From an uncultured delta proteobacterium (GTDB taxonomy: Bacteria; Desulfobacterota; Syntrophorhabdia; Syntrophorhabdales; WCHB1-27): DNA of 64,000 bases. The stretch lies in the NCBI GenBank assembly GCA_963810935.1, contig CAWEPK010000007.1:369811-433810 (forward strand). The letters run 5' to 3'. Position numbers and translations under genes: made by a program. This document shows positions 22,076 to 47,968 of the stretch, piece by piece; position 1 is the first letter of the stretch; every line of letters starts with the position of its first letter. Below the pieces are notes generated by a model. It was not told where the DNA came from. It worked only from the letters and a program-made list of their open reading frames with translations, and did not search any database.

Positions 22076-23210
22076 CTACCTCGGCAGCGGGCCTAAATAC
22101 TGATACAGGTTGCATTCAATTGTAGCGTTGTACAGTTTTCGCTTCCTGTCCGCCTTTCTGCCGAATATTCTTTCGAAGCGGGGGTCGGGGGAGAGGGCGA
22201 ATAGTGACCAGGCGTCGAGGCGCTTCCAGACAGCGCCCAGCGCTTTCCAGGCGCTTTGCGCCTGCGGGCCCTCGGTCCTTATACCGTAGGGCGGGTTGCA
22301 GACTATGCAGCCGTACTGCGCGTTGGATGAGAATGCCTCGACGGGCGCTACGCTGAACCTGATCGCGTCCGCCACGCCCGCCCTTTTCGCGTTCTTTCTG
22401 GCGATCTCGATAGATGCAGGGTCTGAGTCAGACGCCTCGATATCGAGGGGCACGCGCCGCTCCTGCGCACGCGCCTCCTCCCGGGCCTCGCGCCAGACCT
22501 CGGGCGGTATCGACGGCCACGTCTCCGATACGAATGCGCGGCCTATGCCCGGGGCGATGTTCATGCCGGCGAGTGCGGCCTCGATGGGGATCGTGCCGGA
22601 GCCGCAGAACGGGTCGGCCAGGACGCGGCCGGGCTTCCAGCGTGAGAGGCGGACCATGGCGGCGGCCAGCGTCTCCTTCAGGGGCGCTTCGCCGCGCATC
22701 GTCAGGTGGCCCCGCTTGTGCAGGCCCGGCCCTGTCGTATCTATCGTGAGAGTCACGCGGTCCGCGACTATGGCGACCTCTATCCTGTAAACCGGCCCTG
22801 CTTCGGAGAACCAGGCGCCGGGGTAACGCCTGCGCATTGCCTCGACTACGGCCTTCTTCACTATCGACTGGCAGTCGGGCACGGAAGCGAGCTTTGACCG
22901 CACGGACTTGCCCGTCACGTGCATCTTGCCGTTCTTCGGGACCAGACTCTTCCCACGCGATTTCCTTCGTGCCCTGGAAAAGCTCCTCGAAGTCGGTCGC
23001 GTCGAAGTCAGCCACCCTTATGAGGAGCCGGTCGGCGGTACGGAGCCGGATGTTGCAGCGGGCGATGTCCGCCGCGCCCCCGTTGAATGAGACGCGCCCG
23101 TTCTCGACCGTCACGTCCCCGTAGCCAAAGGCACGCAGCTCGTCAGCCACTATCCCCTCGACCCCGAATGCGGCAGTCGCCGTCAGCCTGTATGCAGTAT
23201 CTCCGGTCAT
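22076..23210 (-). CDS. THUMP-domain class I SAM-dependent RNA methyltransferase, RlmL-like (frameshift near 22940)
   Basis: ATAAFGVEG, LRTADR, DTTG.GLHKRG, APLKETLAAA, DPFCGSGTIPIEAA, NPPYG. Confidence 0.88.
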
Positions 23211-24656: not shown

Positions 24657-25914
24657 TCCTCACCCCTCCTCTTCCCCATACCTGCTTATCAGCGGATGCC
24701 CCACGTTCACCATGATCTTCTTGGCATAGAGCGGGTCGTTCTGCCTGAAACCCCCGTACTGGACGGCCTCTGCCAGCTTCCGGGGGTCGGTCCTTGTCTC
24801 TGAGTCGAACAGGCCCGTATATCCCGGCGTGTTCCTGAAGTGGGCGATGTAGTCCTTAAGGCTCTCTTTGTAAGACGGGTAGGCGCGTATGGTCCTGCCG
24901 TTCGCCTCCATCGTAGGCCCCCTCCAGTCTCTTCCCGCCTCCAGGTTGAAGAGGTTGTTGCCGTCCATCCGTTTGCCCCAGCCTGTCTCGGTAGCAGCGT
25001 GGCCTATGATGAAAGGCAAAGAGAGACCTGTCCTCTCTGATACGGGCTTTGCCTCGTTATAGACGTCATCTACGAAGCCGAGCATGTCCTTTGTCGTATA
25101 GGGTTTTGCGACAGATTGGTCCGCGTCCGCGGACGGGCCATGTTCGTACTGCGTGACGGCTTCCTCAGGTTCGGGAAGCGTGGAAGGCATGTAGGGGGTA
25201 ATTTGCACGTCTTCGGGGGACCGGCCAAAGCCGGGGTCGGGATCGTAGGCTTTGCGCCGCCGACGGCCCGTTGCCGGGTCAACGGTATAATCAGGCATCG
25301 GTAAAGGACCGGTCTTGGGCAATCCGCGTGATTCCCTTTCATCGAACCATGCCTTTATGTGATCGGGCAGCAGCCGCCAATCCCTTCCGCCGGGGCGAGA
25401 AAAGTCATAGACGCCGTCGTAGTCGTCATCATCGTCTTCCACCTCTCCACTGTAACTCATCCGGCTCGCTGCTGTTTCCTGCGGAGCCGAGGGCTGGGCA
25501 TCGGCCGCTCCTCCTCCCGGTGCGGGGGAAGACTGCGGGGCGGGTGCAACGGAGGAAGGGCTGTATGGGCCGGGCTCATAAGGAGGGAGGGGCTCAGCAC
25601 CTTGAGCGGGGACAGAATTCACGGGTGGTTGGGGCTGGCTGCTAAACCCGTGGTGTTTGGCCGGATCAACGGCGGGAACCTTGGACCACCCCATGCCTCT
25701 CTGTTCCTCGGAAGTGATAGGCCGCACTTCGATATGGACGTGGGGGCCGGTGCTTTTCTCGCCCGGCGGGTAGTGTCCTAATTTGATTGGGGGAGGGGTG
25801 GGGAATGGCACGGGAGTTGCCCAAGTCCGATAACCCACATTTTTTTAAATGTCAACGGTTTTTTTCTTGACATTGCCTGCTTATAATAGTAAGTTATCAA
25901 TATCATATAGGTTT

Positions 25915-25969
25915 TGGATCGGGGTGTCACTCGGTCGGCAGGGAGCCTCTCACAATGAGAGGCTGCCTG
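25915..25969 (-). ncRNA. Putative DUF3800-associated structured RNA
   Basis: Hairpin CAGG-AGCCTCTCA/TGAGAGGCT-CCTG then CCGACCGAGTGACACCCCGATCCA directly after the DUF3800 stop; DUF3800-linked RNA motifs are a known class. Confidence 0.45.
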
Positions 25970-25974
25970 TTTAT

Positions 25975-26715
25975 TTATGGGAAGAGTTTCAAACCAAAAC
26001 CTCGAAAATTTCCCTTTCTGTCACAATACATCTTGCCCTTAATCCCATCAAAGGGGATATATGGTACTTTTGGCTGAAGTAGGTGCCGCGCAAGAGGGTA
26101 GGCACACAAGTCTGCAAGTTGAAGCCCTATCACGTTGTCTTTCTTTGCCTGAAATTTGAAGCTGGATATAATTTTTTGGAGCCTTTCGGCATTTACATAA
26201 AACGTGCCTTTATTGTAAGTCGAGTGATAGTGGGCTAAAAGAAGCTCGTCTTGGTTTTTCCCTCGCTTTTCTACGCGGACATCCACCTTCGCATCTCTAT
26301 CGATGCTATTTAGGCAGAATATTAGGCGCTCTATGACGAAGGAAAGAGATAAGGTATAGGGGTCGTTAGCCGCCTTCCCGTATTTCTTGATAAGCTGTCC
26401 CTTGTGTACTCCTGACCCGATAACAATGAAGTCGGTAGAGCTTATTATGTCATTCCAATCTTTATAGAACCGGGCCTTCAGATCAACATCGAACAGAATT
26501 TGGAACGGGCCTTCGCATCGTCTTATATCTCTGGAGTGAAGAATGACATCGGTTGTGTGAAAGTATTCTAATTTGAAGCGATCAACTCTGTCTTGCAGGG
26601 CCAATGCCGCGTCTTCCCTCAATAGGCACCCACAAAGAAGAAACAAAGGAAAGTTCTCGTCTACATAGCTTAATCCGTGATCGCCGGTTTCGTCCAAAAA
26701 GAATCGATATTTCAA
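25975..26715 (-). CDS. DUF3800 family protein (RNase H-like)
   Basis: FFLDETGD at the N-terminus, LHSRDIR, K..N.IGLQLADLCAYP. Confidence 0.88.
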   Translation of the reverse strand: MKYRFFLDETGDHGLSYVDENFPLFLLCGCLLREDAALALQDRVDRFKLEYFHTTDVILHSRDIRRCEGPFQILFDVDLKARFYKDWNDIISSTDFIVIGSGVHKGQLIKKYGKAANDPYTLSLSFVIERLIFCLNSIDRDAKVDVRVEKRGKNQDELLLAHYHSTYNKGTFYVNAERLQKIISSFKFQAKKDNVIGLQLADLCAYPLARHLLQPKVPYIPFDGIKGKMYCDRKGNFRGFGLKLFP

Positions 26716-27017
26716 TTCTCTCCTTTGTGATCTCCTACAATTGACGCCCTAACCGCTTTCTCCGGTGAGTCTACCGGCGGAATATGAAGCACGGCATAGT
26801 ACCGGCGCTTAGTACTTCCCTCTATAGGCGAGGACCAGGCATAAGCGCGGGTGGCCTTCGGGTGACCCTCAAGATTGAAAACTGAGACGCTACCCTGCCA
26901 GACGGTCTTATCTCCGAACTTCTCCACAACAACAACGTCCTCGACAAAAGAGGCTTTACAGTTGTGAAGACGCTCAATGGCGGTTCTTAGTTCATCAACT
27001 CTCGTCGTGCTGCTCAT
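26712..27017 (-). CDS. Hypothetical passenger protein
   Basis: ORF overlapping both neighbours; VWQG.V.VF.L.GHPKA.RAYAWS. Confidence 0.7.
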   Translation of the reverse strand: MSSTTRVDELRTAIERLHNCKASFVEDVVVVEKFGDKTVWQGSVSVFNLEGHPKATRAYAWSSPIEGSTKRRYYAVLHIPPVDSPEKAVRASIVGDHKGEN

Positions 27018-27816
27018 CTTTGGTGGGAGATGGCCCCTCCTTGCTGTTGATATCGTAACTCAACTCCAGGTGTTTGATTAGTTTCCTTATAGCCTCTTGG
27101 TTCACTGTTCCTGTGGCGGTTAATCGGATTGTGCCGTCCATTATCCGATAATTCGCAATTTCATGCTCCGCACTAAGCTTTCGTGGGTACGAAGGCATAG
27201 ATGCTCTCTGTTGGTCTAAGGCCGCGAGGTCTTGTATGCCCACCCTTGTAGTTGTCATTGGGGAGTCCTCCACAAAGTGATTTTCATCCCCCATTATATC
27301 AGAATTATAGACGCTTGCATAGTCCATAGTCTTCTTAAAAGTGTTGATAAAATCCTTTGAAGTGCCGGGGTTAAACTTATGCACAAACGTAAGTTCATAT
27401 TCCAAGAGGTCATCGGGGGGCAGGTGCTCCGGGTGTTCCTCCCATATTTTCTTAAACATAGGCGGGCTTAGAGCGCTTTCCCTGATAGACATATCCCGCT
27501 CTGGGGAGACATCCCTTTTGTCCGCGATAATCCTAAAAGCAAGGTCAGAGACCTTTATTTGCCTTGCGTCACCCGTACCGTCAACCTCCACAAGCCTGTA
27601 TGCTAATAGTGCCGCTACGACTCGCAGCGCACCGCTGCTTGTGGGGGAAATATTTAGGGCCTTCATTGCCACCCCAAAGACGACCGAACCACGCCTATAT
27701 TTTTCATATAAAGTTCGAACAATCATTATGCTCCTATCTAGAGAGATTGAAGGAAAATTGGCACTCCTGTGCCGTCCCTTCTTTTCTTTTTCGGCTCCAG
27801 CACTGTCATTGGCCAT
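26995..27816 (-). CDS. Hypothetical passenger protein, possibly winged-helix DNA-binding
   Basis: RSANFPSISL..., AALLAYRLVE; GGAGG RBS and upstream promoter. Confidence 0.65.
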   Translation of the reverse strand: MANDSAGAEKEKKGRHRSANFPSISLDRSIMIVRTLYEKYRRGSVVFGVAMKALNISPTSSGALRVVAALLAYRLVEVDGTGDARQIKVSDLAFRIIADKRDVSPERDMSIRESALSPPMFKKIWEEHPEHLPPDDLLEYELTFVHKFNPGTSKDFINTFKKTMDYASVYNSDIMGDENHFVEDSPMTTTRVGIQDLAALDQQRASMPSYPRKLSAEHEIANYRIMDGTIRLTATGTVNQEAIRKLIKHLELSYDINSKEGPSPTKDEQHDES

Positions 27817-27849
27817 AGCTTTCAAACCTCCTTCAAGATCGTTATCACC

Positions 27850-27952
27850 ATTGTACATGATAAATTATGCTGATGTCAAGAAAAGACTTTAAAATATTTG
27901 TGCTGATTGTATGATAAAAAGGCTTGACATGATGTGTGATTAGGGATATGAT
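27850..27952. promoter_or_regulatory. Divergent sigma70 promoters inside the IS element
   Basis: Plus strand TTGACA(27924)-17-TATGAT(27947); minus strand TTGACA(27879)-18-TACAAT. Confidence 0.7.
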
Positions 27953-28107
27953 AGGCTATGATTGAGAAAGGCACAGGAAAAAACACAATGAGAAGAGACG
28001 AAGCCCTTGCTGGTCACAGAATCACCGCCACCAAGGGCGACAAAGAGAAGGCCTCAAGTCCTGACGCCTACCAGCTACCGGGACTTGAGGCCGTGGTGAT
28101 TCTTAAC

Positions 28108-28177
28108 GGGGCGCGGATTGGTGACCAGCATCGGGGTTTACACCCGGTCGTTCGGGGTCCGAATCCCCGGCGCTCCA
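28108..28177 (+). tRNA. tRNA-like element (reduced D-arm, atypical anticodon loop), probably non-canonical
   Basis: Acceptor GGGGCGC/GCGCTCC-A; T-arm CGGGG-TCCGAAT-CCCCG; anticodon stem TCGGG/CCCGG around GTTTACA. Confidence 0.55.
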
Positions 28178-28213
28178 TTTTCTTAATTATAACATATATC
28201 TGTGAGGGCTACA

Positions 28214-29026
28214 ATGAATAAATTGCCGGTAGAAAAACAGGCAATGGCAATCGGGGCTTTGGTGGAGGGTTCTTCTATCCGTTCCGTGGAGCGCATGACA
28301 GGCATCCATAGGGATACGATCATGCGTCTTGCGGTCCGTACCGACCAGAACTGCGCGGCCCTCATGGATGATTATATGCAGAACCTCAAGTGTGAGAACC
28401 TTGAAGTTGATGAGATATGGTGTTATGTCGGGAAGAAACAGCGCCATGTGCAGATCACAGATAACCTACACGAAGTGGGCGATCAGTGGGTCTTTGTGGC
28501 CCTCGACGCTGAAAGCAAGCTAATACCTTCCTTTTTGGTTGGCAAGCGCACCGCCTCCAATACGGTCAGCTTCATAGAAGACCTTTCACAGCGCCTTGAT
28601 AACCGGGTGCAGCTTAGTAGCGATTCTTTGTCCTTCTACGTGGACGCCGTTGAGCGTGCTTTCGGCATGGAAGTCGATTACGGCCAGATAGTAAAGTCGG
28701 ATGAGGCGGAACCGATTGGGCCGGGCCGCTATTCCCCGCCGCACGTGGTCAGCGCGGAACGTACTGTCCTGACGGGTAACCCGGACGTGCGGAAGATATC
28801 CACGTCACACATAGAGCGGTCGAATCTGACCATGCGTATGCAGATGAGGCGGCTTACTCGCCTTACTAATGGCTTTAGCAAAAAGCTGGACAACCTCAAG
28901 GCCGCCGTTGCCCTTCACTTCGGCCATTACAACTTTGTGCGGGTCCATAAGACGCTAAGGGTCACCCCGGCTATGGCGGCAGGGCTTACAGATCATATAT
29001 GGGAAATAAAAGACTTGATTCCATAG
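28214..29026 (+). CDS. IS1-family DDE transposase (single ORF)
   Basis: N-terminal HTH (EGSSIRSVERMTGIHRDTI), EVDEIWCYVGKK, SSD, TSHIERSNLTMR..MRRLTR.TNGFSKK, HYNF.R.H.TL..TPAM. Confidence 0.92.
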   Translation: MNKLPVEKQAMAIGALVEGSSIRSVERMTGIHRDTIMRLAVRTDQNCAALMDDYMQNLKCENLEVDEIWCYVGKKQRHVQITDNLHEVGDQWVFVALDAESKLIPSFLVGKRTASNTVSFIEDLSQRLDNRVQLSSDSLSFYVDAVERAFGMEVDYGQIVKSDEAEPIGPGRYSPPHVVSAERTVLTGNPDVRKISTSHIERSNLTMRMQMRRLTRLTNGFSKKLDNLKAAVALHFGHYNFVRVHKTLRVTPAMAAGLTDHIWEIKDLIP

Positions 29027-29075
29027 AGAGATATGCTATTGTTTTTCCGTAAATACATCTAAAAGGGGATTGTGT

Positions 29076-29210
29076 ATGACGAAAAAGAGCACAACATCAA
29101 AAAGTGTAGCCCACAAGGCCAGCAAGCTATTGAGCAATCCGAAGACCCCGAAGAACGTACGGAGCGTTGCTGCATCTGTGCTTGAGCAAAGAAAGGACAA
29201 GAGGAAATAG
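29076..29210 (+). CDS. Small basic protein (44 aa)
   Basis: Manual translation MTKKSTTSKSVAHKASKLLSNPKTPKNVRSVAASVLEQRKDKRK, AGGGG RBS. Confidence 0.6.
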   Translation: MTKKSTTSKSVAHKASKLLSNPKTPKNVRSVAASVLEQRKDKRK

Positions 29211-29213
29211 CGT

Positions 29214-29468
29214 TCACTTAGCCTTTAAGTTCGTTATTTTAAGGATAGCCCTTGTGGGTATGGTCATATCGCCACGCCCTTGAAGGATTATATTCTGATT
29301 CCTATGGCCCGCCCTATGGGGCACGATTTTTTTGCAGTCCTTCCCGTCATATAGAAGCCACCCGACCGATTCACAGATTAACGATTCTGGCTTATCGTCT
29401 TCCTCAATCTGTTTCCATCCATCCAAGGGTCCGTGAGAATCAACCCATTCTATTAAAACCAGCTTCAT
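29214..29468 (-). CDS. Hypothetical phage-type small protein
   Basis: LVLIEWVDS....GW...CESVGWL...IP..AI.KI pattern. Confidence 0.65.
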   Translation of the reverse strand: MKLVLIEWVDSHGPLDGWKQIEEDDKPESLICESVGWLLYDGKDCKKIVPHRAGHRNQNIILQGRGDMTIPTRAILKITNLKAK

Positions 29469-29924
29469 GGTATATTTTGTACATATGCTCATAAAGCAAG
29501 TCAAGCGCAAGTTAGGACACTACCGCCCGGCGGCGTGTCTTGCGGGCCGCCGACTTTTCCGATCGTCTCTCCTTTGAGTACCGTTTGGCCTTGCTTGACC
29601 ATGTGGTCTTTAGCCAGGTGGGCGTGATTGCTATAACCTATTATCTTCCCCTCTTTGTCGCTATGTTCGATAACAACATTGTTTCCATAGCCGCTTGTCT
29701 GCCCTACATAGTGTACCTTGCCGTTATCATAGGCAGGAACCGGTGTTCCGGCCTGCGCTGCCCAATCCTCACCCCTGTGATACGTGGACGCCCCCGGTGT
29801 GGGCGCCTTCCTCGGCCCGAAGCCGGAAGTGTGCCTGTAATCCGATCCATCTACGTCCCTGCGTGGATTCCAATGTCTTTCCATCTAAACACCCCTTTTC
29901 TTTGGGTATACTTCGCGGCGCGGC

Positions 29925-31098
29925 CTACCTCCTTCCCTCAGGGTCTCGCTTCAATATGACCAGTTCCCCCTGGAGTTTATTCCCTTCCCATCGATCTCTG
30001 GTAAAGGCTATATATTCTCCTGTGGGCGAGAATCGTGGATAGCGGTTTTCTGAGGGATAACTACCTTCCGGGGTGAGCAGGGTTGTAGTGGCCTTTGGTC
30101 CCATCCCTGAAGTTATCCATATCCGGCCTTCGCCTGCGTAAGCGATCTCATCGTTAACCGACATATCTGAATCGTTGAAGTTTGGTTTGCGGACAGGAGG
30201 CGGGGCAATGGGTACTTTCTCTTCGGTGAACCCGGTTTTTGCGTTGAGCCGTCTTAGGCGTCGGTCCTTCCCAAACCAGTAAATACCTTCCGGCCGGGCC
30301 TTGACACCATCCAGGTAGTCGTCAGACCTGCGGAGGATCGACTTGATCAACCTGCCCCGGTTGTCGTAGATTTCGACCCCTCGCTTGCCTTTTCCTTGCT
30401 TGATAACGAAATTCCCCATAAGTTGATAATCAGGGATAATTTTGTCGCGCCTACCGTGCCTGACGCCAAGAATAAAGTAGCTTCCATCACTTGCCCAGTT
30501 GACGTCAGACTCGTAGTCCCGCCTGCGGCCGTTTTTGGGGAAGTAAAGGACGTTCCAGCCGGGTAAGTCGTACTTCTTCGAGCCCTAGATAATTTTTTTG
30601 TCCAGACATACAACTGCAAGCGTCTTTTCCGTGGGGGATGGAGCTATCTCGGGGCCGTTGCCGACAATGTCGGTAATCGAGCCTGCTTCACGCGTCTTGC
30701 CCGTTCGTGCGTCAATCTCCCATAGTCCCACTGTGTGCGGACCCCCTGGATCGCCCTGTGCCCCCATCTGAATATTGAAGAAGACGCTGGAGCCGTCAAA
30801 GCCTGCAGAAGTGGTCGAACGCGACGAGCAGCCCGTACGCAGCATTCGTCCGTTTGCCCGTTGCCACATCGACGAGGAGAATACCGCCCGTGCCCTCGCC
30901 CTCGTTGGGGACAGCAAGGCAAGTTTTCCCGCACCACCGGGGCGCCCGGGTACTCCAGTTCATGATTTCGAGTATGCCTACCTGTTTCCACCCGCCGCCG
31001 TACTCGGCCCGGTCCGTGTCAGAAGCGTGGCACAGACTAAATGCAACGAGTGTGCACGCTGCTGCGAAACTGATTATGCGATTGATTCGTTTGTTCAT
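29925..31098 (-). CDS. Secreted protein, TolB-like beta-propeller (frameshifts near 30420, 30600, 30800-30960)
   Basis: Signal peptide MNKRINRIISFAAACTLVAFSLCHA; repeats IAPSPTEKTLA and PRFSPTGEYIAF. Confidence 0.55.
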
Positions 31099-31182
31099 CT
31101 TCTCCCCGGCCCTTCTTTCAGCAGTTCTCTCATAAAGACTCCCCCACGGCCGACTTTCTTCCCGTCCCCGGCCGATTTTGCA

Positions 31183-31270
31183 AGGATATCCCTTTCATAC
31201 CACTATGTCAAAGCGACAACCAGGGGTGACAACCAGACATGACATGGAGAGGTGACATGGAGGGGTGACA
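31183..31270 (-). promoter_or_regulatory. Leftward sigma70 promoter with five upstream 13-bp-period sites
   Basis: Minus strand TTGACA(31211-31206)-17-TATCCT(31188-31183); (G/A)(T/C)GACA at 31213, 31226, 31239, 31252, 31265. Confidence 0.7.
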
Positions 31271-31520
31271 GAAAGCACGTCCGGAATTGTTTTTCATTTT
31301 CTTTTGTTCTAAGTCTTGCCATAGTGGTAATACTGTGTGACGCCTGATCGGGCCTCGGCGTCTTGCGGGGTCTCGATGCGGTCGAAGGGATACGTGCTAT
31401 GCACCGGAGGGACGTTGAACGCCGCCGCGAAGCGCAGGAAGCAGACGTGCTCCGTCGCGTGCCGTTATCGTGTTTGAAGCCGCGCGAAAAAACTTTGAAA
31501 AAAATTTAAATCATGCAAAT

Positions 31521-31608
31521 TGTCACCCCTGGTTGTCACCCCTCCTTGTCACTCCTCCATGTCACCCCTGGTTGTCACTTTGACAGGTTTTGCCGCCTGC
31601 AATAAGCT
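31521..31608 (+). promoter_or_regulatory. Rightward sigma70 promoter with five upstream 13-bp-period TGTCAC sites
   Basis: TGTCAC at 31521, 31534, 31547, 31560, 31573; TTGACA(31580)-17-TAAGCT(31603). Confidence 0.72.
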
Positions 31609-31643
31609 TCTCTCCATGAACACGGCGCAGAAGAAAAAAACCC

Positions 31644-31946
31644 ATGGAGGAGAAGGTAAAGGCAGGCGGCGGGCGGGCGTTGTCAGGGGCTTACGAGGGC
31701 TTCATCGCGCGGCTCGAAGAGCGCATCCCCGACGACCTCCTTGTGGACCAGCTGGAGCGGGAGTTGCGTCTGGGCGGCGAGACTCCGGACCTGAAGGAGA
31801 TGTCGATCAGGCAGAAGGCGCGGCAGGACGTCGAGGCGCACAAGGGCTACAAGCGCGCGGGCGGCCAGGACTCAGACCGCAAAGGCGGGAATACGCTCAT
31901 CGTCAGGATCGTCCGGTTCTCGGAGGTGAAACATGGCGGCAAATAG
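31644..31946 (+). CDS. Putative terminase small subunit
   Basis: Overlaps the terL start; helical body with C-terminal beta strand (NTLIVRIVRF); positional call. Confidence 0.5.
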   Translation: MEEKVKAGGGRALSGAYEGFIARLEERIPDDLLVDQLERELRLGGETPDLKEMSIRQKARQDVEAHKGYKRAGGQDSDRKGGNTLIVRIVRFSEVKHGGK

Positions 31947-33383
31947 AGCGCGGACAAAACCCGCACAAGCCGCGGGCAGCGCATCGGCGCGTCGCGCTCC
32001 GGCCGCTAAACCGAGGGGCCGGAAAGCCCCCGTCCCCGCAGACGCCCCTGTCATCACGCTGCCCCTCGACTGGACCCCGCGCCCCGACCAGCGCTCCCTT
32101 TGGGACTATCTTGAGTCAGGCGGGAAGCGGGCCGTGATGGTGGCGCACAGGCGGTGGGGCAAGGACGAGGTGGGCCTCCACTTTGCGGCAGTCGCGGCAG
32201 TGCAGCGGCCGGGCAACTACTGGCACATGCTGCCCCAGTACGGCCAGGCGCGGCGCGTCATCTGGGAGGCGGTAAACCCGCGCACGGGCCGCCGCCGCAT
32301 CGACGAGGCGTTTCCCCACGAGATCAGGCGCAGGACCATCGACGGCGAGATGCTGATCGAGCTTGCGAACGGCTCGACGTGGCAGCTCGTCGGCTCCGAC
32401 AATTTCGATTCCCTCGTCGGCTCGCCCCCTGTCGGCATCGTCTTCTCCGAGTACGCCCTGGCCGACCCGATGGCGTGGGCCTATTTCCGTCCGATCCTCG
32501 CGGAGAACGGCGGGTGGGCGCTCTTCATTTATACCCCGCGCGGGCGCAACCACGGCAAGACGCTCTACGACTTCGCACGCAGCGAGGAAGGATGGTTCAG
32601 CCAGGTCTTGTCCGCCGCAGACACGCCGGTCTTCGACGCCGTGCGTCCTCGATCGGGAGCGGCGCGAGCTGTGCGCGGAGTTCGGCGAAACCGAAGGCGA
32701 GTTGCTCTACCTTCAGGAATACCAATGCTCCTTCGAGGGGATGGTGCACGGCGCGTATTACGCGAAGCAGCTTGCCGCGGCGCGCTCCGAAGGGCGCATC
32801 GGCCCGGTCCCGCACGCGGCCGGCCACGAGGTCTACACCTTCTGGGACTTGGGCATGGACGATTCGACGTCCATCTGGTTCATGCAGGCGATAGGGCGCG
32901 AGCTGCGCTTCATCGACTATTACGAGGCCGCGGGCGAGGGGCTTGCCCACTACGCTACGGTCCTGAAAGGCAAGCCCTACGTCTACGGCGACCACTACAT
33001 GCCGCACGACGCGGACGTGCGCGAGCTTGGCACAGGCACGAGCCGCAGGGCAACGGCCGAGGCGCTCGGCATCCGGCCCGTCATCGTCGTGCCCAGGCCG
33101 CGCGACACGCAGGCGGTGCTGTCCGGGCATCGAGGCAGGCCGCAACGCCATGTCCCGCTGCTGGTTCGACGCACGCGCCTGTAGCCGGGGCCTTGCCGCC
33201 CTCGAAGGATACAGGGCCGAGTACGACGACGACAAAAAGAAGCTGGCCGACCGGCCGATTCACGACTGGTGCTCGCACGGCGCGGACGCTTATCGGACTT
33301 TTGCGGCGGGCTTTACTCCGCGCGCAACGCAGAGGTCGGTCACGTCAGTGCTGAACAGCATCGATTTCGGAGGGAGATGGTAA
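31933..33383 (+). CDS. Phage terminase large subunit (frameshifts near 32645 and 33125)
   Basis: AHRRWGKD, IVFSEYA, FIYTPRGRNHG, QEYQCSF, WDLGMDDSTSIWF, MPHDA, HDWCSHGADAYR. Confidence 0.92.
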
Positions 33384-35521
33384 TGAACAACGAGCGTGAG
33401 TTTCTTGACATTGCGACGCGGCGGCTGACACGCGAGATCGACGCTGACGACCACAACAGGCAGGCCGCGATAGAAGACCTGAAATTCCTGAACGGCGACC
33501 AGTGGGAGGCATCCGAGGAGCAGCGCCGGCGCCTGCGCGGCAGGCCGTGCCTGCGGACGAACGAGCTCCCCAAATACGTCAACCAGGTCGTGGGCGACAT
33601 GCGCCAGAACCGCGCGCGCGTCAAAGTGCGGCCCGTCGATTCCGCAGGCGACATCCAGATAGCGAAAATCCGCTCCGGCCTCATCGCCAATATCGAATAC
33701 TGCTCCAACGCGGAAGCGATTTACGACTACGCGGGCGAGATGGCGGTCTCGTGCGGCTACGGGGCGTGGCGCATAGGGACGCGTTACACCGAAGACAACC
33801 CGTTCCTCCAGGAAGTCTACGCCGAGCGCATCCGCAACCCTTTCCTCGTCTACATGGACTCGTCCGCAAAATCGGAAGTTTACGCGGACGCCAAATATGG
33901 CTTTGTCCTCGAAAAGGTGACGAAGGAAGAGTTCGAGGAGCGGTTCCCCGGCAAGGAAGCGCCCGGCGACCCCGTCAGGACGGGCAAGGGTGTGGGGCAG
34001 GAAGCGTGGTACGCGCAGGGCGCTTTTTTCATCGCCGACTATTATGTTATCGAGCGCGAAAAAAAGACCGTCTGCCTGATGGGCGACGGCACATTTATGG
34101 ATAAGGCGGAGGCGGAAAGGCTCGCAGACGAATGGCGCAGCCAGGCAGCCGCAGCAGATCGTGAGGCCCAAGCGGCCTTGGAGGCGGCAATCGCCCCAGG
34201 GGCGCCCAGCCCCCTCGATACCCCCGATGGGGCTGCCGGCGACGCCGTAACGCAAGGGGCCGTGGCCCCTGTGCCTTTTCCGCCTCTGCCCCCTTCTCTT
34301 ACGATAGACGACGAGCGCACCGTGGAGGCGCCGAGCGTCAGGTGGTACGCAATCACCGCGAACCAGGTGCTCGACGGCCCGAAGGAGATACCGGGCCGGT
34401 ACATCCCCATCATCGTAGTCAAGGGGCCCGAGCGCAACATCGAGGGCAAGACCCACGTACGCAGCCTGATCCGCGACGCAAAAGACCCGCAGCGCCTCCT
34501 CAATTTCTGGGTCACCGATTCGGCGGAGATCGTCGATATGATCCCGAAGGCGCCGTGGATCGGCACGGCCAGGCAGTTCGAGGGCTACGAGAACGACTAC
34601 GCAGCCGCCAACACGGAGAACTTCCCTTTCCTCAAGTACAACGCCGACCAGGGCGCGCCGCCGCCCTCGCGGGTGGGGATCGGCGGCATACCCGCCGCAG
34701 TCTTCGAACAGATAGGGCAGGCGAAGCAGGCCATTATGGATACGATAGGCATGTTCGCATCCGATCTCGGGGACAGGGGGCCCGAGCTTTCCGGCAAGGC
34801 GATATTGCAGCGCCAGAAGCCGGGCGACGTGGCGACGTTTGCCTTCATCGACAACCTGACGCGCGCCATCGCGCATTCGGGCCGGGTCATTAACGAGATG
34901 ATCCCCCAGGTCTACGACACGGAGCGCGACGTGCGCATCAGGAACGCGGACGAGACGGAAGATTTCACGCCGGTCAACACTACGGCCGGGCGCGCGCTGG
35001 AGGCGCTGGCTGCGCAGCCGGCCCGCTATGCAGGCGTAGACAGGGAGGGCCTTGCGCGCCTCGCGGCAAAATACGGCGCGGGCGCGCGGTACAACGACCT
35101 GACGGCAGGCAGGTACGACGTGGTAGTCAGCACGGGGCCGAGCTACGCCACGCAGAGGCAGGAAGCGGCCGCGTCGCTGGAGCGGCTGGTCGCCGCGTTC
35201 CCGCAGGTGATGGCGGTAGCGGGCGACCTGATCTATAAATTCCAGGATTTTCTCGGGGCGGAGGAGATAGCGGAGCGGATCGAGAGGACCATGCCGCCCA
35301 ACCTTGTGCCTCCCAAGGAGGGCGCGCCCCAAAGGCCCCCGCAGCCCCCGCCCCCACAAATGCAGGTCAAGATGATGGAGATGGAAGTGAAGAGACAGGA
35401 GCTACAGGTCCAGCAGCAGAAACTACAGGTGGAGAAGTTAAAGGCGCTGAAGGAAGCCCAGAGTGAGAACGGTGAAGTGAGGAGTATGCTGCTCGACCTG
35501 CTAAGCGAGGTATTCAGTTGA
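33383..35521 (+). CDS. P22-like portal protein
   Basis: DLKFL.GDQW, RPCL..N, KDPQRL.NFW, SGKAI..RQ, G.YDVVV.TGPSYATQRQEA, C-terminal coiled coil. Confidence 0.92.
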   Translation: MNNEREFLDIATRRLTREIDADDHNRQAAIEDLKFLNGDQWEASEEQRRRLRGRPCLRTNELPKYVNQVVGDMRQNRARVKVRPVDSAGDIQIAKIRSGLIANIEYCSNAEAIYDYAGEMAVSCGYGAWRIGTRYTEDNPFLQEVYAERIRNPFLVYMDSSAKSEVYADAKYGFVLEKVTKEEFEERFPGKEAPGDPVRTGKGVGQEAWYAQGAFFIADYYVIEREKKTVCLMGDGTFMDKAEAERLADEWRSQAAAADREAQAALEAAIAPGAPSPLDTPDGAAGDAVTQGAVAPVPFPPLPPSLTIDDERTVEAPSVRWYAITANQVLDGPKEIPGRYIPIIVVKGPERNIEGKTHVRSLIRDAKDPQRLLNFWVTDSAEIVDMIPKAPWIGTARQFEGYENDYAAANTENFPFLKYNADQGAPPPSRVGIGGIPAAVFEQIGQAKQAIMDTIGMFASDLGDRGPELSGKAILQRQKPGDVATFAFIDNLTRAIAHSGRVINEMIPQVYDTERDVRIRNADETEDFTPVNTTAGRALEALAAQPARYAGVDREGLARLAAKYGAGARYNDLTAGRYDVVVSTGPSYATQRQEAAASLERLVAAFPQVMAVAGDLIYKFQDFLGAEEIAERIERTMPPNLVPPKEGAPQRPPQPPPPQMQVKMMEMEVKRQELQVQQQKLQVEKLKALKEAQSENGEVRSMLLDLLSEVFS

Positions 35522-35522
35522 C

Positions 35523-35692
35523 GGGGGGGCCGGGATCTTTTCGCGGCCTTCGCGTCGTTTTCTCGGGCGCGAGTCCTCACTTGCCACCCGCGCCTGGCAA
35601 GCCCGGAGCGCGGGTACCCGGCTATTATTTTATACGCTGCGGCTCGCTTGGTCGAAAAGCAACGCGAATTCCATCGAAAATCTCTCCGGCCC
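35523..35692 (+). repeat. Palindromic repeat copy 6, with the 41-bp insert (35582-35622)
   Basis: Very similar to copy 2, including the insert; begins 1 bp after the portal stop. Confidence 0.9.
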
Positions 35693-35708
35693 AAGCACGG
35701 TGGGATGA

Positions 35709-35805
35709 GTGACAGGGGTTGTGACAAAACCTGTGACAAAAGTTTGGGGTCGCGGAGTGTAACGCATTGTTATTACGGGTAAAGGGTGTGACAAAATGAG
35801 TGACA
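35709..35805. repeat. Third GTGACA cluster (12-bp period)
   Basis: GTGACA at 35709, 35721, 35733, 35788, 35800. Confidence 0.7.
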
Positions 35806-35978
35806 AAATGCACGGCGGAGCCTGACCCCAATACCTTGATTCCGCTTGTTAGGAAGGACGAATTATTTGTCCGGAGTGCGCTGAAAGCTGGATGAGGAGG
35901 ACGGTATAAAGCGATAACTAACATTTCGGGTTCTCACCCTGGCCCGGCCAGGCTGGGGTGAGACGAAAGCGGACAACG

Positions 35979-36025
35979 AGGACGGCAGTGTAGGTGCCTA
36001 CATCACTTACACTGTCGTCCTTTTT
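35979..36025 (+). terminator. Long hairpin with T-tract between portal and scaffold genes
   Basis: AGGACGGCAGTGTAGGTG-CCTACAT-CACTTACACTGTCGTCCT-TTTT (18-bp stem, two G-U pairs). Confidence 0.65.
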
Positions 36026-36093
36026 GTTCGGCCTGAATTCGTGAGTGTTGCGCGCCATTGCGACCCGCCGACTGGAGCGGCGGTTCACTACTA

Positions 36094-36201
36094 CGTCACC
36101 CCGGCGAAGGCCGGGGTCCAGGACCGCTCCAGGGTTTGGAAATCGCTGGATTCCGGCTCCCGGATTGAAACGTTTCCGGGACAAGCTTCGCGGGAATGAC
36201 G
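36094..36201. repeat. REP-like inverted pair (GTCAYCCCGGCGAAGGCCGGGGTCCAG type)
   Basis: CGTCACCCCGGCGAAGGCCGGGGTCCAG ... CTGGATTCCGGCT-[insert]-TCGCGGGAATGACG. Confidence 0.65.
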
Positions 36202-36299
36202 GAGGAAGAAGGGTGGAATGAGAGAAGACGTTCAGGCGGTGGGGGCCACCAAAGATATTAGCTGCGTCGAAGACATAAAGGCGCAAAAGGAGAAGACGC

Positions 36300-37310
36300 A
36301 TGACAAACGCCGTGGATGAGACCACGAGAGGCCGGGGCGGATACGTTGCCGGCCAGGCCGGAAATGAGGGGTCGGCGCCCTCGATGGAAGAAGGGAGAGG
36401 AACGGACGGGCAGGCCGCATCGCCCGGAATCGGGCAGGCGGAAACGGGCGCCGTTGAAGCTGCCGGCGGGACCGGACCGCAGGAAGCGCCTGATCGGGCG
36501 GGGTCCGGGCCGAGGCAGGAGAGCAGGATCGTGCGCGAGCTGAAAGACCAGCGGAGAAAGAAGCGCGAGGCGCAGGCCGCCGCGGCGTACTGGAAAGGCG
36601 TAGCCGACGGCCGGATGGGCCCGCAAGCTGGCGTGCCGCCGCGCGGCGGCGCTGCATCGCCCGACCCTACGGCCTTCGAGAACCTCGACGACTACGAGGA
36701 CGCGCTCTCCGGATACCCGGACGATGAGGCGGAAGGCGGGCCGGCCGGAAGCACTCTGCTCGACCGGGCCGCGACGGCGCTGTCCGATGGATACCCGTCC
36801 GCTGCGCCCGTTGACGCACTATTACTGCCGCCGCCCGGCGCGCCGGAGACGGACCGCGCATTTTCTGCGCGCATCGCCGAGGCTGCGGCAGGGGAGTTCC
36901 CTGAAATCGCCAATATCGTCAACGACGTAACGCTCCACGTGAGCGGCCCGATGGCGGCAGTCATCAAGGCGTCCGAGGAGGCGCCGGCGCTCCTGCGATA
37001 CTTAGCTGCGCACAGGGACGAGGCGAGGCGCATATACGATCTTGCCCCGACGATGATACTGCCGGACGGCAGGCAGGTCCAGGGGGGCAACCCGCTGGCG
37101 GCCGCAGCGGAGCTGGGCAGGATCGCATCGCGCCTGTCCGCAGGAAAGGAACAACCACATACCAGGCGCGTCTCTTCCGCACCCGAGCCTGTCGTTCCCG
37201 TAGGCGGCGGGTCCGGCACGATCGAGGCGGATGACGAGCGGGTCCCCATCGAGGAGTTCGTCAGGCGGCGGAACGAGGCGCAGTACAGCCATTCAAGGAA
37301 AAGGAGATAA
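36300..37310 (+). CDS. Putative capsid scaffolding protein
   Basis: Between portal and coat; disordered N-terminus, PDP..F...DDY.DAL, AAELGRI..RL, SSAPEPV.PVGG. Confidence 0.75.
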   Translation: MTNAVDETTRGRGGYVAGQAGNEGSAPSMEEGRGTDGQAASPGIGQAETGAVEAAGGTGPQEAPDRAGSGPRQESRIVRELKDQRRKKREAQAAAAYWKGVADGRMGPQAGVPPRGGAASPDPTAFENLDDYEDALSGYPDDEAEGGPAGSTLLDRAATALSDGYPSAAPVDALLLPPPGAPETDRAFSARIAEAAAGEFPEIANIVNDVTLHVSGPMAAVIKASEEAPALLRYLAAHRDEARRIYDLAPTMILPDGRQVQGGNPLAAAAELGRIASRLSAGKEQPHTRRVSSAPEPVVPVGGGSGTIEADDERVPIEEFVRRRNEAQYSHSRKRR

Positions 37311-37313
37311 ACC

Positions 37314-38570
37314 ATGCCGAACACACTGTTAACACCTACGCAGGTTTTGCGCGAGGCATTACGCGTCCTCCACAACAACCTGGTTTTCGTAAAGAACGTC
37401 AACAAGCAGTACAGCCAGGAATTCGCGATATCGGGCGCCAAGGTGGGCGCGACGATCAACGTGCGCCTGCCGAACCGCTATTACGTAACGAAGGGCACGC
37501 AGCTAGCGCCGCAGACGACGAACGAAAGCACCGTCCCTTTGACGCTGTCCACCAACTACCAGGTGGGCCTCAACTTTACGCAGGCAGAGTTAACCCTGTC
37601 GCTGGATGATTTTTCCAAGCGCGTGCTCGTTCCCGCTATGGCGCGGCTGGCCAGCCAGATCGACCAGGACGGCCTCGGGCTCGTGTCGAACGTCTTCAGC
37701 CAGGTGGGCACGCCGGGCACGACACCAGGCACGTCGGGGGGATCATTCGCGAGCCAGCTCCTCGATTACAACGCGCCGCAGGTCTACCTGAACGCGGGCA
37801 TGAAGATGGACAACCTCGCCGCGCCCAGGGACGAGAACCGCTGGTGCGTGCTCAACCCGGCAGCGATGGCTGCGTCAGTCGGCGGCCTGTCCGGCCTCTT
37901 TCAGGATTCCAAGGCATTAGGCGAGCAGTACAGGAAGGGCGTGATAGGCAGCGCGCTGGGCTTCGAGTTCGCTATGGACCAGAACGTCAACATGCTTACG
38001 ACCGGCGCCCACGGCGGCACGCCCGTAGTGACGACCGGCGGCCAGACGGGCGCAACCCTCAACACGTCCGGCTGGACGGATTCCGTGTCCAACATCCTTA
38101 CCGCGGGCGAGATCATCTCCGTGGCCGGGGTGAACTCGGTGAACCCGGAGAACCAGACAACGACGGGCTACGTGCAGAACTTCGTCGTCACGGCCAATTG
38201 CAGCTCCGATTCTTCGGGCAACGTCGCGATCCCCATCTATCCGTCGATCGTCGTGGCGGGGGCGGGCGTGGCGGACGGCACGGTGACTGCGAGCCCGGCC
38301 CCGAACGCACCGGTAACGCTGATGAGCGGGTCGGCGAACACGTCGTACCCGATGAACGTGGCCTATCACCAGGACGCATTCACGCTGGCGACGGCGGACC
38401 TGGAGATGCCGAAGGGCGTCGATTTCGCGGCGCGTGAAACGTACGACGGCGTCTCGATGCTGATCGTGCGGGCGTACGACATCAACTACCAGCAGTTCCC
38501 GTGCAGGATAGACGTGCTTGCGGGATGGGCCTGCCTGCGGCCGGAATTAGCATGTCGGATCACGGGCTAG
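37314..38570 (+). CDS. P22-type major capsid (coat) protein
   Basis: MPNTLLTP..V.REAL..L.NNL, GAKVGATINVRLP, PAMA.LA..ID, RIDVL.GW..LRPELACRI.G. Confidence 0.92.
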   Translation: MPNTLLTPTQVLREALRVLHNNLVFVKNVNKQYSQEFAISGAKVGATINVRLPNRYYVTKGTQLAPQTTNESTVPLTLSTNYQVGLNFTQAELTLSLDDFSKRVLVPAMARLASQIDQDGLGLVSNVFSQVGTPGTTPGTSGGSFASQLLDYNAPQVYLNAGMKMDNLAAPRDENRWCVLNPAAMAASVGGLSGLFQDSKALGEQYRKGVIGSALGFEFAMDQNVNMLTTGAHGGTPVVTTGGQTGATLNTSGWTDSVSNILTAGEIISVAGVNSVNPENQTTTGYVQNFVVTANCSSDSSGNVAIPIYPSIVVAGAGVADGTVTASPAPNAPVTLMSGSANTSYPMNVAYHQDAFTLATADLEMPKGVDFAARETYDGVSMLIVRAYDINYQQFPCRIDVLAGWACLRPELACRITG

Positions 38571-38628
38571 GTTAGTGGGTTTAGGGGCCGGGCGCGAGCT
38601 GTCGGCCCGGCCCCTATAAAGGAGAGCC

Positions 38629-39363
38629 ATGATAATTACGGCACAGCAATTAATCAAGGTCGCGATGCAGGACATCGGCGTGCTGGCCAAGCAGGAGTCG
38701 CCTTCGGCTGACGAAATTGCCGACGGGCTCCTGAAGCTCAACGTCCTTATCGACGCCTGGTCGGTCCGGTCGCTGGTAGTACTGGGGGCCGCGCTGGAAG
38801 GGTTCGCCCTCACAGGCGGCAAGCGCGCCTACACTATCGGCGTTGGGGGCGATTTTTCCACGGAGGAGCCCTCCCGCGTGACGGACGCCTACGTGCGCGA
38901 CGCAGCGGGGACGGACACGCCCCTCGACATCATCACGCAAGGCGAGTACGACCGCCTGCCGGACAAGACGATCTCTTCGGGCAGGCCGATGGCGCTTTTC
39001 TTCGACCCCGGTCCGGTGCAGGCCGCAGTGCCGTCGGGCGTCGTCAACCTGTATCCTGCGCCCGACGCGTCTACGCAGTACACCCTCTACTTGGGGGAGC
39101 AGAAGCCGCTTTCGGAGTTTGCGCGGCCGACGGACGCGGTGACGTTCCAGCCCGCGTACTACGAGGCCCTCGAATACAACCTGGCCCTGCGCCTCTGGCG
39201 GCAGTACCACGAGGAGGACCGCGCCATCCCCCCTGACCTCGTAACGCTGGCGCGCGACGCGATGAAAGTCATCGAGACGATGAGCAGCCGCACCCCGACC
39301 GCAGTTATCGAAGTGCCGGGCAGGCGCGGGCGCTACGGGATCCTGACGGGCGGCGCGGTATGA
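38629..39363 (+). CDS. Head-tail adaptor/DNA stabilization protein (P22 gp4-like position)
   Basis: TA..LIK.A..DIGVL...E.PSADE..DGL..LN..ID.W; Y.EAL.YNLA.RL. Confidence 0.72.
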   Translation: MIITAQQLIKVAMQDIGVLAKQESPSADEIADGLLKLNVLIDAWSVRSLVVLGAALEGFALTGGKRAYTIGVGGDFSTEEPSRVTDAYVRDAAGTDTPLDIITQGEYDRLPDKTISSGRPMALFFDPGPVQAAVPSGVVNLYPAPDASTQYTLYLGEQKPLSEFARPTDAVTFQPAYYEALEYNLALRLWRQYHEEDRAIPPDLVTLARDAMKVIETMSSRTPTAVIEVPGRRGRYGILTGGAV

Positions 39364-39376
39364 GGCGGAGGGCGCT

Positions 39377-40888
39377 ATGAACATACCATTCGTCGGCCCT
39401 ACCTACGCGGGCCGCTCGGGCAATATCGACGCATCGCGCTCCATTAACTTCTACCCGGAGACGAACCCGGCAGGGGCCAAGCAGCCGATGAGCCTTGTCG
39501 GCACGCCGGGTACGTGCCTTTGGGCCTCCCTAGGGGCGCCGCCGGTGCGGGGCATGCACGTGATGAACGGCGTGCTATACGTCGTCGCCGGAGGAAAGCT
39601 CTTTTCCGTGAATGCGGCAGGCGCGCCGTCGTCCGCGCTGGGGTTGCTTGCCACGTCGAGCGGAAGGGTGCTGATGGCGGACAACGGCGCCGGGTCGTCG
39701 GGCGCAGGCGGCAATCAATTGATGATAGCGGACGGCACGGCAGGCTACGTTTACAACACGGCGACGGGCACATTCAGCACAATATCGGGCGGGGGCTTTC
39801 CTGCCGGCGGGGCGGCAGCACTTACATACATCGACGGCTACTTCATCGCATCCGAGGAAGGCAGCATGACCGTCTGCGCGTCCGATCTCTACGACGGCAC
39901 TGTCTGGAACGCGCTTGCCGCATCGCCGGTGTCGGCCGCGCCCGACGCAGTGCAGGCGCTTGCGAACCTCGCCCAGCAGCTCTGGATCATAAAGGAGTAC
40001 ACGTCGGAAGTCTGGTACGACGCGGCCGTGCCGACGAGCCAGGGCTTCCCGTTTATGCGCTTGCCGGGCATGGTGCTTGATTACGGCACGCCCGCGCCCC
40101 ATTCGGTCGCGCGCGGCAGCGACGCGCTCTTCTTCCTGGCTAACCAGAGGAACAACGACGGCGGCGAGTTCGTGGGCGTAGTCGCCCTCTCCGCATCCAC
40201 GCCGCAGATCGTAAGCCCGCCGCAGATCACATACAGGATGGGCCTCTACCCGATGCTCTCTGACGCCTTCGGCTACTGCTACTCGGACGGCGGCCACACA
40301 TTCTACGTGCTCACGTTCCCGTCGGGCAACGCCACGTGGGTCTACGACGCGACGACCGCCATGTGGCACGAGCGCTCCACCTGGACGGGCGAGCAAGCCT
40401 TGAGCGGAGCCACACCCGCAAACGGCGCGGGAATGGCGCCGCAATCCTATCAGATAGGCAGGCACGTGGGCAACTGCTACGCGAACTTCTCAGGGATGCA
40501 CTTGGTGGGCGACTGGCAGAGCGGCGATATCTACGAGATGCGCTCCGACGTCTACACGGACAACGGCCTGCCTCTCGTATCCGTAAGGTGCAGCCAGCAC
40601 CTGTTCGACCCGAACGAGATGGGAAGGCTCTTCGTTCACCGCCTCGTGCTCGACATGGAGACGGGCACTGGCGACGCATCCAGCGGCCTCGTGCCCTCGT
40701 GCGCCCTTTCATGGTCTGACGACGGGGGACATACGTGGTCGTCCGATTACACGGCGTCGATGGGCGCGGCAGGCGGGTACAGAACGCGCGTCGTATGGCG
40801 GAGGCTGGGCTCGTTCCGCGACAGGATATTCCGCATCTCCATATCGGACCCCGTGAAGAGGATCGTCATAGGAGCGTCCACAGAATGA
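39377..40888 (+). CDS. Packaged-DNA stabilization protein (P22 gp10-like tail hub)
   Basis: INFYPE, YIDGYF, GH.FYVLTFP....TWVYD..T..WHER, SDDGGHTWS, WRRLG..RDR.F....SDPVK. Confidence 0.85.
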   Translation: MNIPFVGPTYAGRSGNIDASRSINFYPETNPAGAKQPMSLVGTPGTCLWASLGAPPVRGMHVMNGVLYVVAGGKLFSVNAAGAPSSALGLLATSSGRVLMADNGAGSSGAGGNQLMIADGTAGYVYNTATGTFSTISGGGFPAGGAAALTYIDGYFIASEEGSMTVCASDLYDGTVWNALAASPVSAAPDAVQALANLAQQLWIIKEYTSEVWYDAAVPTSQGFPFMRLPGMVLDYGTPAPHSVARGSDALFFLANQRNNDGGEFVGVVALSASTPQIVSPPQITYRMGLYPMLSDAFGYCYSDGGHTFYVLTFPSGNATWVYDATTAMWHERSTWTGEQALSGATPANGAGMAPQSYQIGRHVGNCYANFSGMHLVGDWQSGDIYEMRSDVYTDNGLPLVSVRCSQHLFDPNEMGRLFVHRLVLDMETGTGDASSGLVPSCALSWSDDGGHTWSSDYTASMGAAGGYRTRVVWRRLGSFRDRIFRISISDPVKRIVIGASTE

Positions 40889-41130: not shown

Positions 41131-41134
41131 GGCG

Positions 41135-41689: not shown

Positions 41690-41690
41690 T

Positions 41691-42527: not shown

Positions 42528-42544
42528 CACGTAAAGGAGGGCAT

Positions 42545-43309: not shown

Positions 43310-43310
43310 C

Positions 43311-47956: not shown

Positions 47957-47968
47957 AGGAGGGGCACC

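Follow-up and report, generated by a model that had tools for sequence, protein, structure and literature searches.

The window, the 64,000-nucleotide stretch of DNA analysed here, contains between two divergent operons a pair of repeat arrays facing away from one another (31183–31608), which raises the question of what acts on these repeats and why a phage-like virion operon and a leftward wall-hydrolase operon should both begin beside them. The right array (31521–31578, plus strand) consists of five 13-bp direct repeats, predicted to be sites for a winged-helix activator, in which TGTCAC starts at 31521, 31534, 31547, 31560 and 31573. It is followed by a predicted sigma70-type promoter (31580–31608, plus strand) with a −35 TTGACA at 31580–31585, 17 bp and a −10 TAAGCT at 31603–31608. 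The left array (31213–31270, minus strand) also has five 13-bp repeats, two of them with one mismatch (TGTCAC at 31270, TGTCAC at 31257, TGTCAT at 31244, TGTCAC at 31231 and TGTCGC at 31218), and leads into a predicted sigma70-type promoter (31183–31211, minus strand) with a −35 TTGACA at 31211–31206, 17 bp and a −10 TATCCT at 31188–31183. These coordinates confirm what an earlier reading made without database searches (the sequence-only reading) had described, namely five TGTCAC-type sites per arm in exact 13-bp register and, on each side, an outward TTGACA followed after 17 bp by a −10-like hexamer; the A/T patches that it reported just inside both arrays are also present. The last repeat and the −35 together form a TGTCA-N3-TGACA dyad, and the inverted arms (31206–31304 and 31487–31585) are 72% complementary, with 87% in the core 45-nt arms. 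The right promoter is predicted to start transcription at about 31615–31616, and relatives keep its −10 TAAGCT together with an ATG 7–8 nt beyond.

Three-site arrays were not found in 60 simulated 64-kb windows, compared to six overlapping matches in the real one. In the 4.06-Mb genome to which the window belongs (G000; G, L, g and C denote genomes, fetched loci, genera and contigs), exact pairs of TGTCAC occur nine times at a period of 13, four times at 12, twice at 24 and once at 14, and at none of the remaining 13 periods within 8 to 24. The repeat consensus, from 342 units, is the full 13-mer TGTCACCCCT(G/C)(G/C)T and not a hexamer with a free spacer. Both arrays lie on a single short-read contig (31043–32467), which may share its sample with the assembly.

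The interior between the arrays (31271–31520) begins and ends with A/T tracts (~31281–31305 and 31487–31520) that form the upstream edge of each promoter module, and an A/T tract with a TGCTTTT-like edge lies upstream of most other module copies. Overall the 250-bp interior is 49% A+T despite these tracts, its middle portion is not conserved, and a second copy is absent from G000 and from every fetched locus of other genomes. A partial duplicate of the left promoter's −35 region lies within it (31316–31337, plus strand). The sequence-only reading had taken the mirror-image pairing for a special link between the two operons, which is not supported: in most relatives only the right array is found next to rlmL, the interior, as just noted, has no second copy, and a further array, the third in G000, lies on contig C12. 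In six g2 genomes the array adjoins rlmL with no adjacent mirror partner, while in G001 a partner lies ~630 bp off with interior and cargo different from those of the window; back-to-back module pairs also occur in both G001 and G019. Judged from these comparisons, the unit is not the 380-bp pair, but a predicted promoter module of ~110 bp comprising five 13-bp TGTCAC repeats, TTGACA, 17–18 bp and a −10, and the mirror image in the window would be a local matter, a cargo operon lying next to the virion operon.

A genome-wide scan for such arrays, proposed in the sequence-only reading as a way to define the regulon, recovered the third G000 module (C12:224788–224880; L001:9789–9880) and copies across the family: 12 of its 22 genomes, all from genera g1, g2 and g6, have the three-site pattern, while the ten from g3–g5 and the reversed control have none. 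The C12 module has seemingly lost its cargo and is followed by an AT-rich AAA_13 gene. Promoter-anchored modules number 1–4 in g1 and g6 and 10–22 in five g2 genomes, and overlapping array matches reach 64 in G009 and 59 in G012. Of 98 distinct module copies, 93 show a −10-like xAxxxT after a spacer of 16–18 bp; for TTGAC[AG] in G000 as a whole the proportion is 20% (777 of 3864). Since the module copies are related (they form 24 spacer clusters), the figure of 98 overstates their independence. Exactly five repeats were counted in 78/96 copies. Ten relatives gave a strong terL match. The array lies before terS in nine of them, bearing out the conservation upstream of orthologous terS for which a check had been suggested, and the exception has an integrase ahead of a terL fragment. 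Among 400 genomes of the phylum the TGTCAC pattern was found in four, with the TTGACA promoter in none of these, and the TGTCAC tandems of G410 (L222, L226, L228, L234, L236) were discarded as an unrelated 13-bp repeat fused to a dispersed palindromic repeat and lacking TTGACA. At two loci (L075:8646 and L077:4598) the same foreign sequence starts inside the array, apparently an insertion sequence that targets it.

The modules head four kinds of cargo, and the earlier proposal that both arrays belong to one regulon is supported. The first is the P22-like virion operon. The second is a two-gene operon, one product of which is an HTH protein with PHROG matches to terminase small subunits (E to 7e-8); the operon is present in G003, G004, G008, G017 and G019 and partly in G015. 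This HTH-TerS is accompanied by a 66-aa protein in which an IRxxRFS strand is similar to the C-terminal end of the virion TerS (L038:207–829, L209:10393–10806, L054, L168), and the two may form a two-part, sequence-specific terminase subunit. The third comprises a signal-peptide protein and a wall hydrolase, either M23-glucosaminidase or SLT-like, which by analogy could be immunity-effector pairs. The inclusion of the window's secreted-protein and M23-glucosaminidase operon in the regulon, also proposed earlier, gains support from a relative in which an array-led operon of the same build lies at another site: in G001 an uninterrupted gene for a 526-aa M23-glucosaminidase follows one for a signal-peptide protein, and the pair has its own array. 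The fourth, in g2, is a ~400-bp non-coding repeat with hairpins, a TCTTTGACAA box, a C run and 10-bp GTGCAC repeats, of which there are 10 to dozens per g2 genome (L034, L046, L058, L081 and about 55 more). We take the TCTTTGACAA box to be boxA, a label supported by the occurrence of the same letters ~50 bp before the 16S gene of G000; the box is present in 61/98 module copies compared to 91/5000 random windows. Searches of G000 for the HTH-TerS operon and the boxA-bearing repeat found neither, and eight module loci gave no Rfam matches. A boxA-like box also accompanies some arrays of g234, a genus of another order (L370, L379, L394).

Within the window, the right module opens onto a small-terminase-like gene (terS, 31616–31946, plus strand), so identified from its position before terL and most likely leaderless from the ATG at 31616, 7 nt past the −10. 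It has no Pfam or PHROG match and no detected HTH, and its structure model shows three helices at low confidence (pLDDT 57). The large terminase gene follows (terL, 31933–33354, plus strand; phrog_2, E 1e-11). Short-read contigs, which come from four DNA runs of one study, have one base fewer at 31648–31651 in terS and at 32639–32642 in terL in all four runs, and at 33123 in two of the four; the apparent frameshifts at ~31650, ~32640 and ~33123 are thus assembly errors and both genes are intact. A conserved terL 'frameshift' in relatives was dismissed as an artefact of these errors in the window query. Genes for P22-like portal, scaffold, coat, head-tail adaptor, head closure, ejection protein and tail fibre occupy 33269–44747 on the plus strand (Pfam P22_portal, P22_CoatProtein and Collar; PHROGs 156, 8865, 283, 637, 578 and 598), and the late operon ends with a lysin-like gene, a 121-aa gene and a holin (47492–48701, plus strand; phrog_873, phrog_2609, Phage_holin_6_1), just short of a CAAX protease gene and mnmE. 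Pfam and PHROG scans of the window found no integrase or replication gene. Records with close relatives of the coat gene (8 loci) are labelled Syntrophorhabdales, Syntrophaceae or uncultured delta proteobacterium, which suggests a host of Syntrophorhabdales type. Two other features of this operon were noted. Between portal and scaffold (35710–35810) are three plus two GTGACA repeats with a 12-bp period, placed around a stretch that we presume to be IHF-like; similar clusters occur at L102, L104 and L105, and they look like arm-type or TerS-binding sites. The short repeat at 35524–35692 is a multi-copy REP-like element: in each of the four runs its contig depth is much higher and loose ends are numerous.

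On the minus strand, the left operon begins with a gene (29925–31098) for a protein with a PD40 repeat (E 1e-4) and a signal peptide, judged by eye, which is by analogy a candidate immunity protein. It is in pieces in the assembly, and the indels at 30585–30593 and 30802 are absent from contigs of two of the four runs; one run has no coverage of 24664–31303. Next come the N-terminal part of an M23 peptidase (29501–29884; Peptidase_M23, E 8e-17), a 3.7-kb low-GC insertion (25839–29500; 47% GC) with an IS1 fragment, DUF3800 and others, and a C-terminal part with an HxH motif, linker and glucosaminidase domain (24660–25838; Glucosaminidase, E 1e-13), which shares 59% identity with the G001 protein over 268 aa. 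Given the intact 526-aa gene in G001, the hydrolase gene of the window appears to have been interrupted. Further along, three host genes are split into overlapping ORFs (a Mur ligase at 7505–9479, a Big_5 protein at 15552–19017 and rlmL at 22076–23210), which fits assembly indels.

None of the window's genes was retained as a regulator; an HTH_3 gene (21684–22010) was set aside because it matches an antitoxin family. The sequence-only reading had placed the regulator outside the window, which is supported by the finding of a candidate ~120 kb away. On an IMG/VR contig the array and terS adjoin a cI-like gene, homologues of which are present in 12/12 array genomes and in 1/10 others. In G000 the cI-like gene (C7:279505, 120 kb from the window) lies in a 2.8-kb cassette amid host genes, in which a small CxxC gene and the cI-like XRE+S24 repressor are followed divergently by a replication initiator (phrog_1408, E 3e-35) and, last, a winged-helix gene encoding ~65 aa (C7:278049–278270); no integrase was found at this locus. 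The winged-helix gene is single-copy and present in 11/12 array genomes and 0/10 array-free ones, a co-occurrence within one family that is not independent, so that the support amounts to two lineages plus seven phage-like loci. The exception is G003 (92% complete, 270 contigs), where arrays are present and a winged-helix match is absent. In G001, G015 and L106 the cassette has no initiator, but arrays and winged-helix gene are still there. On three of 27 contigs (L289, L312 and L307, two of them near-identical) the winged-helix gene lies upstream of array and terS. An AbiEi/AbiEii type IV toxin-antitoxin pair lies directly downstream of the gene in G000 and G002 (L262:8244–9922).

A model of the protein from a 92-sequence alignment (pLDDT 86) is that of a stand-alone MerR-like wHTH of 55–70 aa. 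Its best structural matches are excisionases, RppC, RdfS, MerR domains and BldC (VIA Z 5.0–6.1; 8C3T, 6HN7, 8DGL, 2KVV, 6AMK), and Foldseek against the BldC-DNA structure gave a probability of 0.94 with E 0.087; these scores are middling (Z < 8, E > 0.05), and a shared fold alone shows no function. The protein of the window genome matches no curated family, two winged-helix queries had no match among INPHARED phages, and a PDB sequence search returned weak HTH matches only. ESM Atlas matches are to unnamed clusters and DUF3853, and the family comprises 114 representatives at E up to 0.001.

Distant homologues were found in five of 400 phylum genomes. Four of them close a prophage-like gene run and are followed within 3–19 bp by 4–5 repeats, while the fifth is a broken gene. 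The repeat motifs differ (TGGGAC, TTGCAC, TG(T/G)CAC and TGTCCC, at periods of 12–15 bp), the last repeat starts 7 bp before TTGAC, and what follows is terS/terL in two cases, lysis genes in one and other phage genes in one. Three further gene-array loci were recovered: L326, found by motif before the gene was seen upstream, L329 and L334, whose motif type occurred in G519 only among five genomes. Over all seven loci, most of them in phage-like DNA, the array stops 7–8 bp short of TTGAC and usually leads into terminase or lysis genes. The gene is linked upstream of terS at L289, L312, L307, L318, L321, L326 and L329, compared to its unlinked position at the end of the cassette in G000. An adjacent array is present at 7/39 homologue loci, most of the other 32 being solo g234 cassettes; no adjacent array was seen at L322, L327, L328, L331, L333, L353 and L356. 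Among the 39, L320 is a broken gene and L323 a false match. Several distant phage promoters have a poor −10 (L318, L319, L334).

A winged-helix homologue is present in 32 of 39 genomes of g234, mostly, at loci whose context was read, in a solo cI/cro/wHTH cassette, and terminase remnants 18–24 kb away are headed by five TTGCCR repeats 12–13 bp apart. Arrays of TTGCCR at 13 bp occur in 28/39 g234 genomes, often in many places, and in 0/57 other genomes of the order; 26 of these 28 hold the winged-helix gene and two do not. Six of ten ORFs picked behind g234 arrays match a phage family. Motif and protein thus vary jointly, the geometry being retained, and g234 appears to repeat the split design with a different motif.

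We propose that the arrays are activator-dependent phage late promoters and that their activator is most likely the ~65-aa winged-helix protein of the Xis/BldC/RdfS fold, a reading to which we give a probability of about 0.78. The layout and domains of the cassette suggest that the cI-like protein would repress the divergent operon; on induction the winged-helix protein, as its fold would allow, would polymerise head-to-tail on the five 13-bp repeats, and the last repeat, fixed 7 bp before the −35, would by its geometry bring sigma70 RNA polymerase to a promoter whose −10 is weak. All loci led by a module would then fire together, that is the virion/lysis operon and the wall-hydrolase operons and, in relatives, the second TerS and the numerous non-coding repeats that bear boxA. 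An ancestral prophage would have come apart into an early and a late half, both passed on vertically. It counts against this reading that a perfect −35 is unusual for an activator-dependent promoter and that known Xis/BldC repeats are 9–11 bp apart, not 13.

The perfect TTGACA, together with the TGTCA-N3-TGACA dyad, would also be accounted for if the same protein and sites served to repress strong constitutive promoters, or to switch from repression, as BldC does in repressing from upstream repeats (PMC5859096). However the sites lie entirely upstream of the −35, the −10 elements are weak, and the gene stands last in a cI-controlled early operon, which is the position of Ltr activators (PMC3753634), so that we consider repression improbable. 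Slightly less improbable, though still far behind late activation, is that the winged-helix protein is a packaging adaptor supplying the DNA-binding domain that the virion TerS lacks, the arrays then being pac sites with packaging from every module, a role that could coexist with that of promoter. RppC (6HN7) ties for the top fold match (Z 6.1), a viral packaging-motor chain (7LXS) scores 5.1, and Rpp proteins are described as binding TerS and redirecting packaging (PMC6739421); moreover the virion TerS has no HTH match and 61/98 module copies lead into a boxA-bearing repeat, not a gene. Packaging sites would not account for the fixed phase to the −35 and the retained −10, nor for arrays that head lysis and hydrolase genes (L319, L203), and the TerS of L318 and L326 appear by eye to carry an HTH of their own.

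Two alternatives raised in the sequence-only reading, a TG...CA MITE and an iteron origin, are contradicted for the 380-bp pair by the wider comparison and we regard both as very improbable. The unit does start with TGTCA, finish with TGACA and hold internal repeats, and its dozens of dispersed copies in g2 and the back-to-back pairs of G001 and G019 would suit the ends of a MITE or of an IS21/Tn7-like transposon, whose outward −35 would have formed hybrid promoters. Yet there is no target-site duplication around the 380-bp pair, no full-length repetition of that 380-bp unit and no transposase seen between paired arrays; the interior is unique, six g2 genomes have single arrays beside rlmL, the −10 is kept on the outer flank in 93/98 copies, and insertion sequences have apparently landed inside arrays (L075, L077). 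An origin of the P4 or SaPI type, bound by the cassette initiator and allowing run-off replication, would explain both the inverted repeats flanking A/T tracts and the presence in the cassette of a replication-initiator homologue (phrog_1408, E 3e-35). Against this, G001, G015 and L106 retain arrays and winged-helix gene even though their cassettes lack the initiator, the arrays are mostly single, and the interior is 49% A+T.

If the arrays are late promoters as we propose, it remains to consider what particle they serve. DNA trees of terL, cI, the wHTH gene and host rlmL broadly agree: g1 forms one group in every tree, and three of the four, that of terL among them, share a g2 clade of four genomes (G008 is absent from the cI and rlmL trees). 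The phage genes are about as diverged as rlmL, with dN/dS of 0.075–0.19 for the coat gene, at most 0.26 for the wHTH gene and at most 0.36 for cI. Lack of an integrase, vertical inheritance and purifying selection, three features expected of a gene transfer agent (GTA), were all found, the last being seen in prophages too. On the other hand, the coat gene was not found in G001 (82% complete), where it is missing from a contiguous cluster, G003 has no terL and coat matches, and tail and ejection genes vary across the lineage, all of which argues against a stable particle. Scaffold, coat and connectors are absent from the virion locus of G001 (L202), where terS, terL, portal, lysis genes and four large ejection-like genes persist. 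We give a GTA-like particle slightly less than an even chance; a remnant or helper-dependent element is possible though somewhat less so, and a protein-delivery device would be unlikely.

Tentatively, and with more doubt than we attach to the activator, the whole may be a domesticated P22-like particle, either a new GTA or a hydrolase-delivery device, whose late activator is now a chromosomal master regulator. Its module would have come to occupy dozens of places and to recruit variable hydrolase/immunity and internal-virion genes, the boxA-bearing non-coding copies would be genome-wide packaging starts or a threshold-setting sink making the response all-or-none, and the design would have arisen in two orders. 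In the literature that we searched, which leaves out most subscription journals, there was no description of such a system; what is new here is a named candidate for the activator of the window, a predicted regulon that spans the chromosome without linkage to it, and the recurrence of such a regulon in another lineage. A family of phage late activators so far uncharacterised gains a candidate pair of protein and site, with a promoter and activator small enough for direct work in E. coli. The repeats abutting TTGAC are a searchable signature that maps whole regulons in uncultured anaerobes. There is also the prospect of predicting GTA-like or tailocin-like systems beyond the Alphaproteobacteria, where prediction from sequence only is described as hard (PMC6854486).

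Several known systems offer parallels. Like GTAs (RcGTA, CcGTA, BaGTA, Dd1), this is a vertically inherited multi-locus prophage remnant without an integrase. The gp1 of RcGTA is described as a short TerS without HTH (PMC6854486), which the window TerS may resemble in being short and without an HTH match (low-confidence model, pLDDT 57), and the split between regulator cassette and virion locus resembles BaGTA, where a separate replication/regulator locus is reported to act on the capsid locus (bioRxiv 10.1101/2024.11.20.624540). It differs from GTAs in its P22-like virion genes, its single cI-like/wHTH cassette and its predicted use of an activator array in place of an antiterminator. In fold, the modelled winged-helix protein resembles BldC, Xis, RdfS and P2 Cox; BldC is described as binding direct repeats head-to-tail and repressing whiI from −50 to −80 (PMC5859096), and RdfS as activating PintS (PMC11963761). 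Head-to-tail oligomers on the 13-bp repeats are predicted here from the repeat geometry. Unlike those proteins, the gene has no integrase or att site beside it, the repeat periods are 12–15 bp, and a late-promoter role is predicted.

In its logic, the system resembles the Ltr activators (RinA, LtrC, ArpU and the Alt of TP901-1), which are described as encoded by the last gene past the replication module, under cI control, and as binding 2–4 direct repeats upstream of the terS promoter (PMC3753634). Here too the gene ends an early/replication module upstream of terS (at the linked loci; unlinked in G000) and direct repeats precede the terS promoter, whereas the predicted activator is a MerR-like winged helix, the five 13-bp repeats abut the −35, the hosts are Gram-negative deltaproteobacteria in contrast to the Gram-positive hosts of Ltr phages, and the gene is unlinked and serves many loci. 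The RinA, ArpU and LtrC families were not among the matches (in scans without NCBIfam RinA/ArpU models), the top folds being Xis/MerR-like. In the PrtR/PrtN system a repressor is described as controlling an activator whose P-box of four 10–11-nt repeats drives R-, F- and S-type pyocins together (PMC4905994). A repressor over a repeat-binding activator is likewise predicted here, although this structural cluster keeps terminase, portal and capsid genes and its partner operons encode wall hydrolases; Pfam scans found no similarity to PrtN. By analogy, the module would work like Ltr or PrtN/P-box control with another fold, and we file it in neither family.
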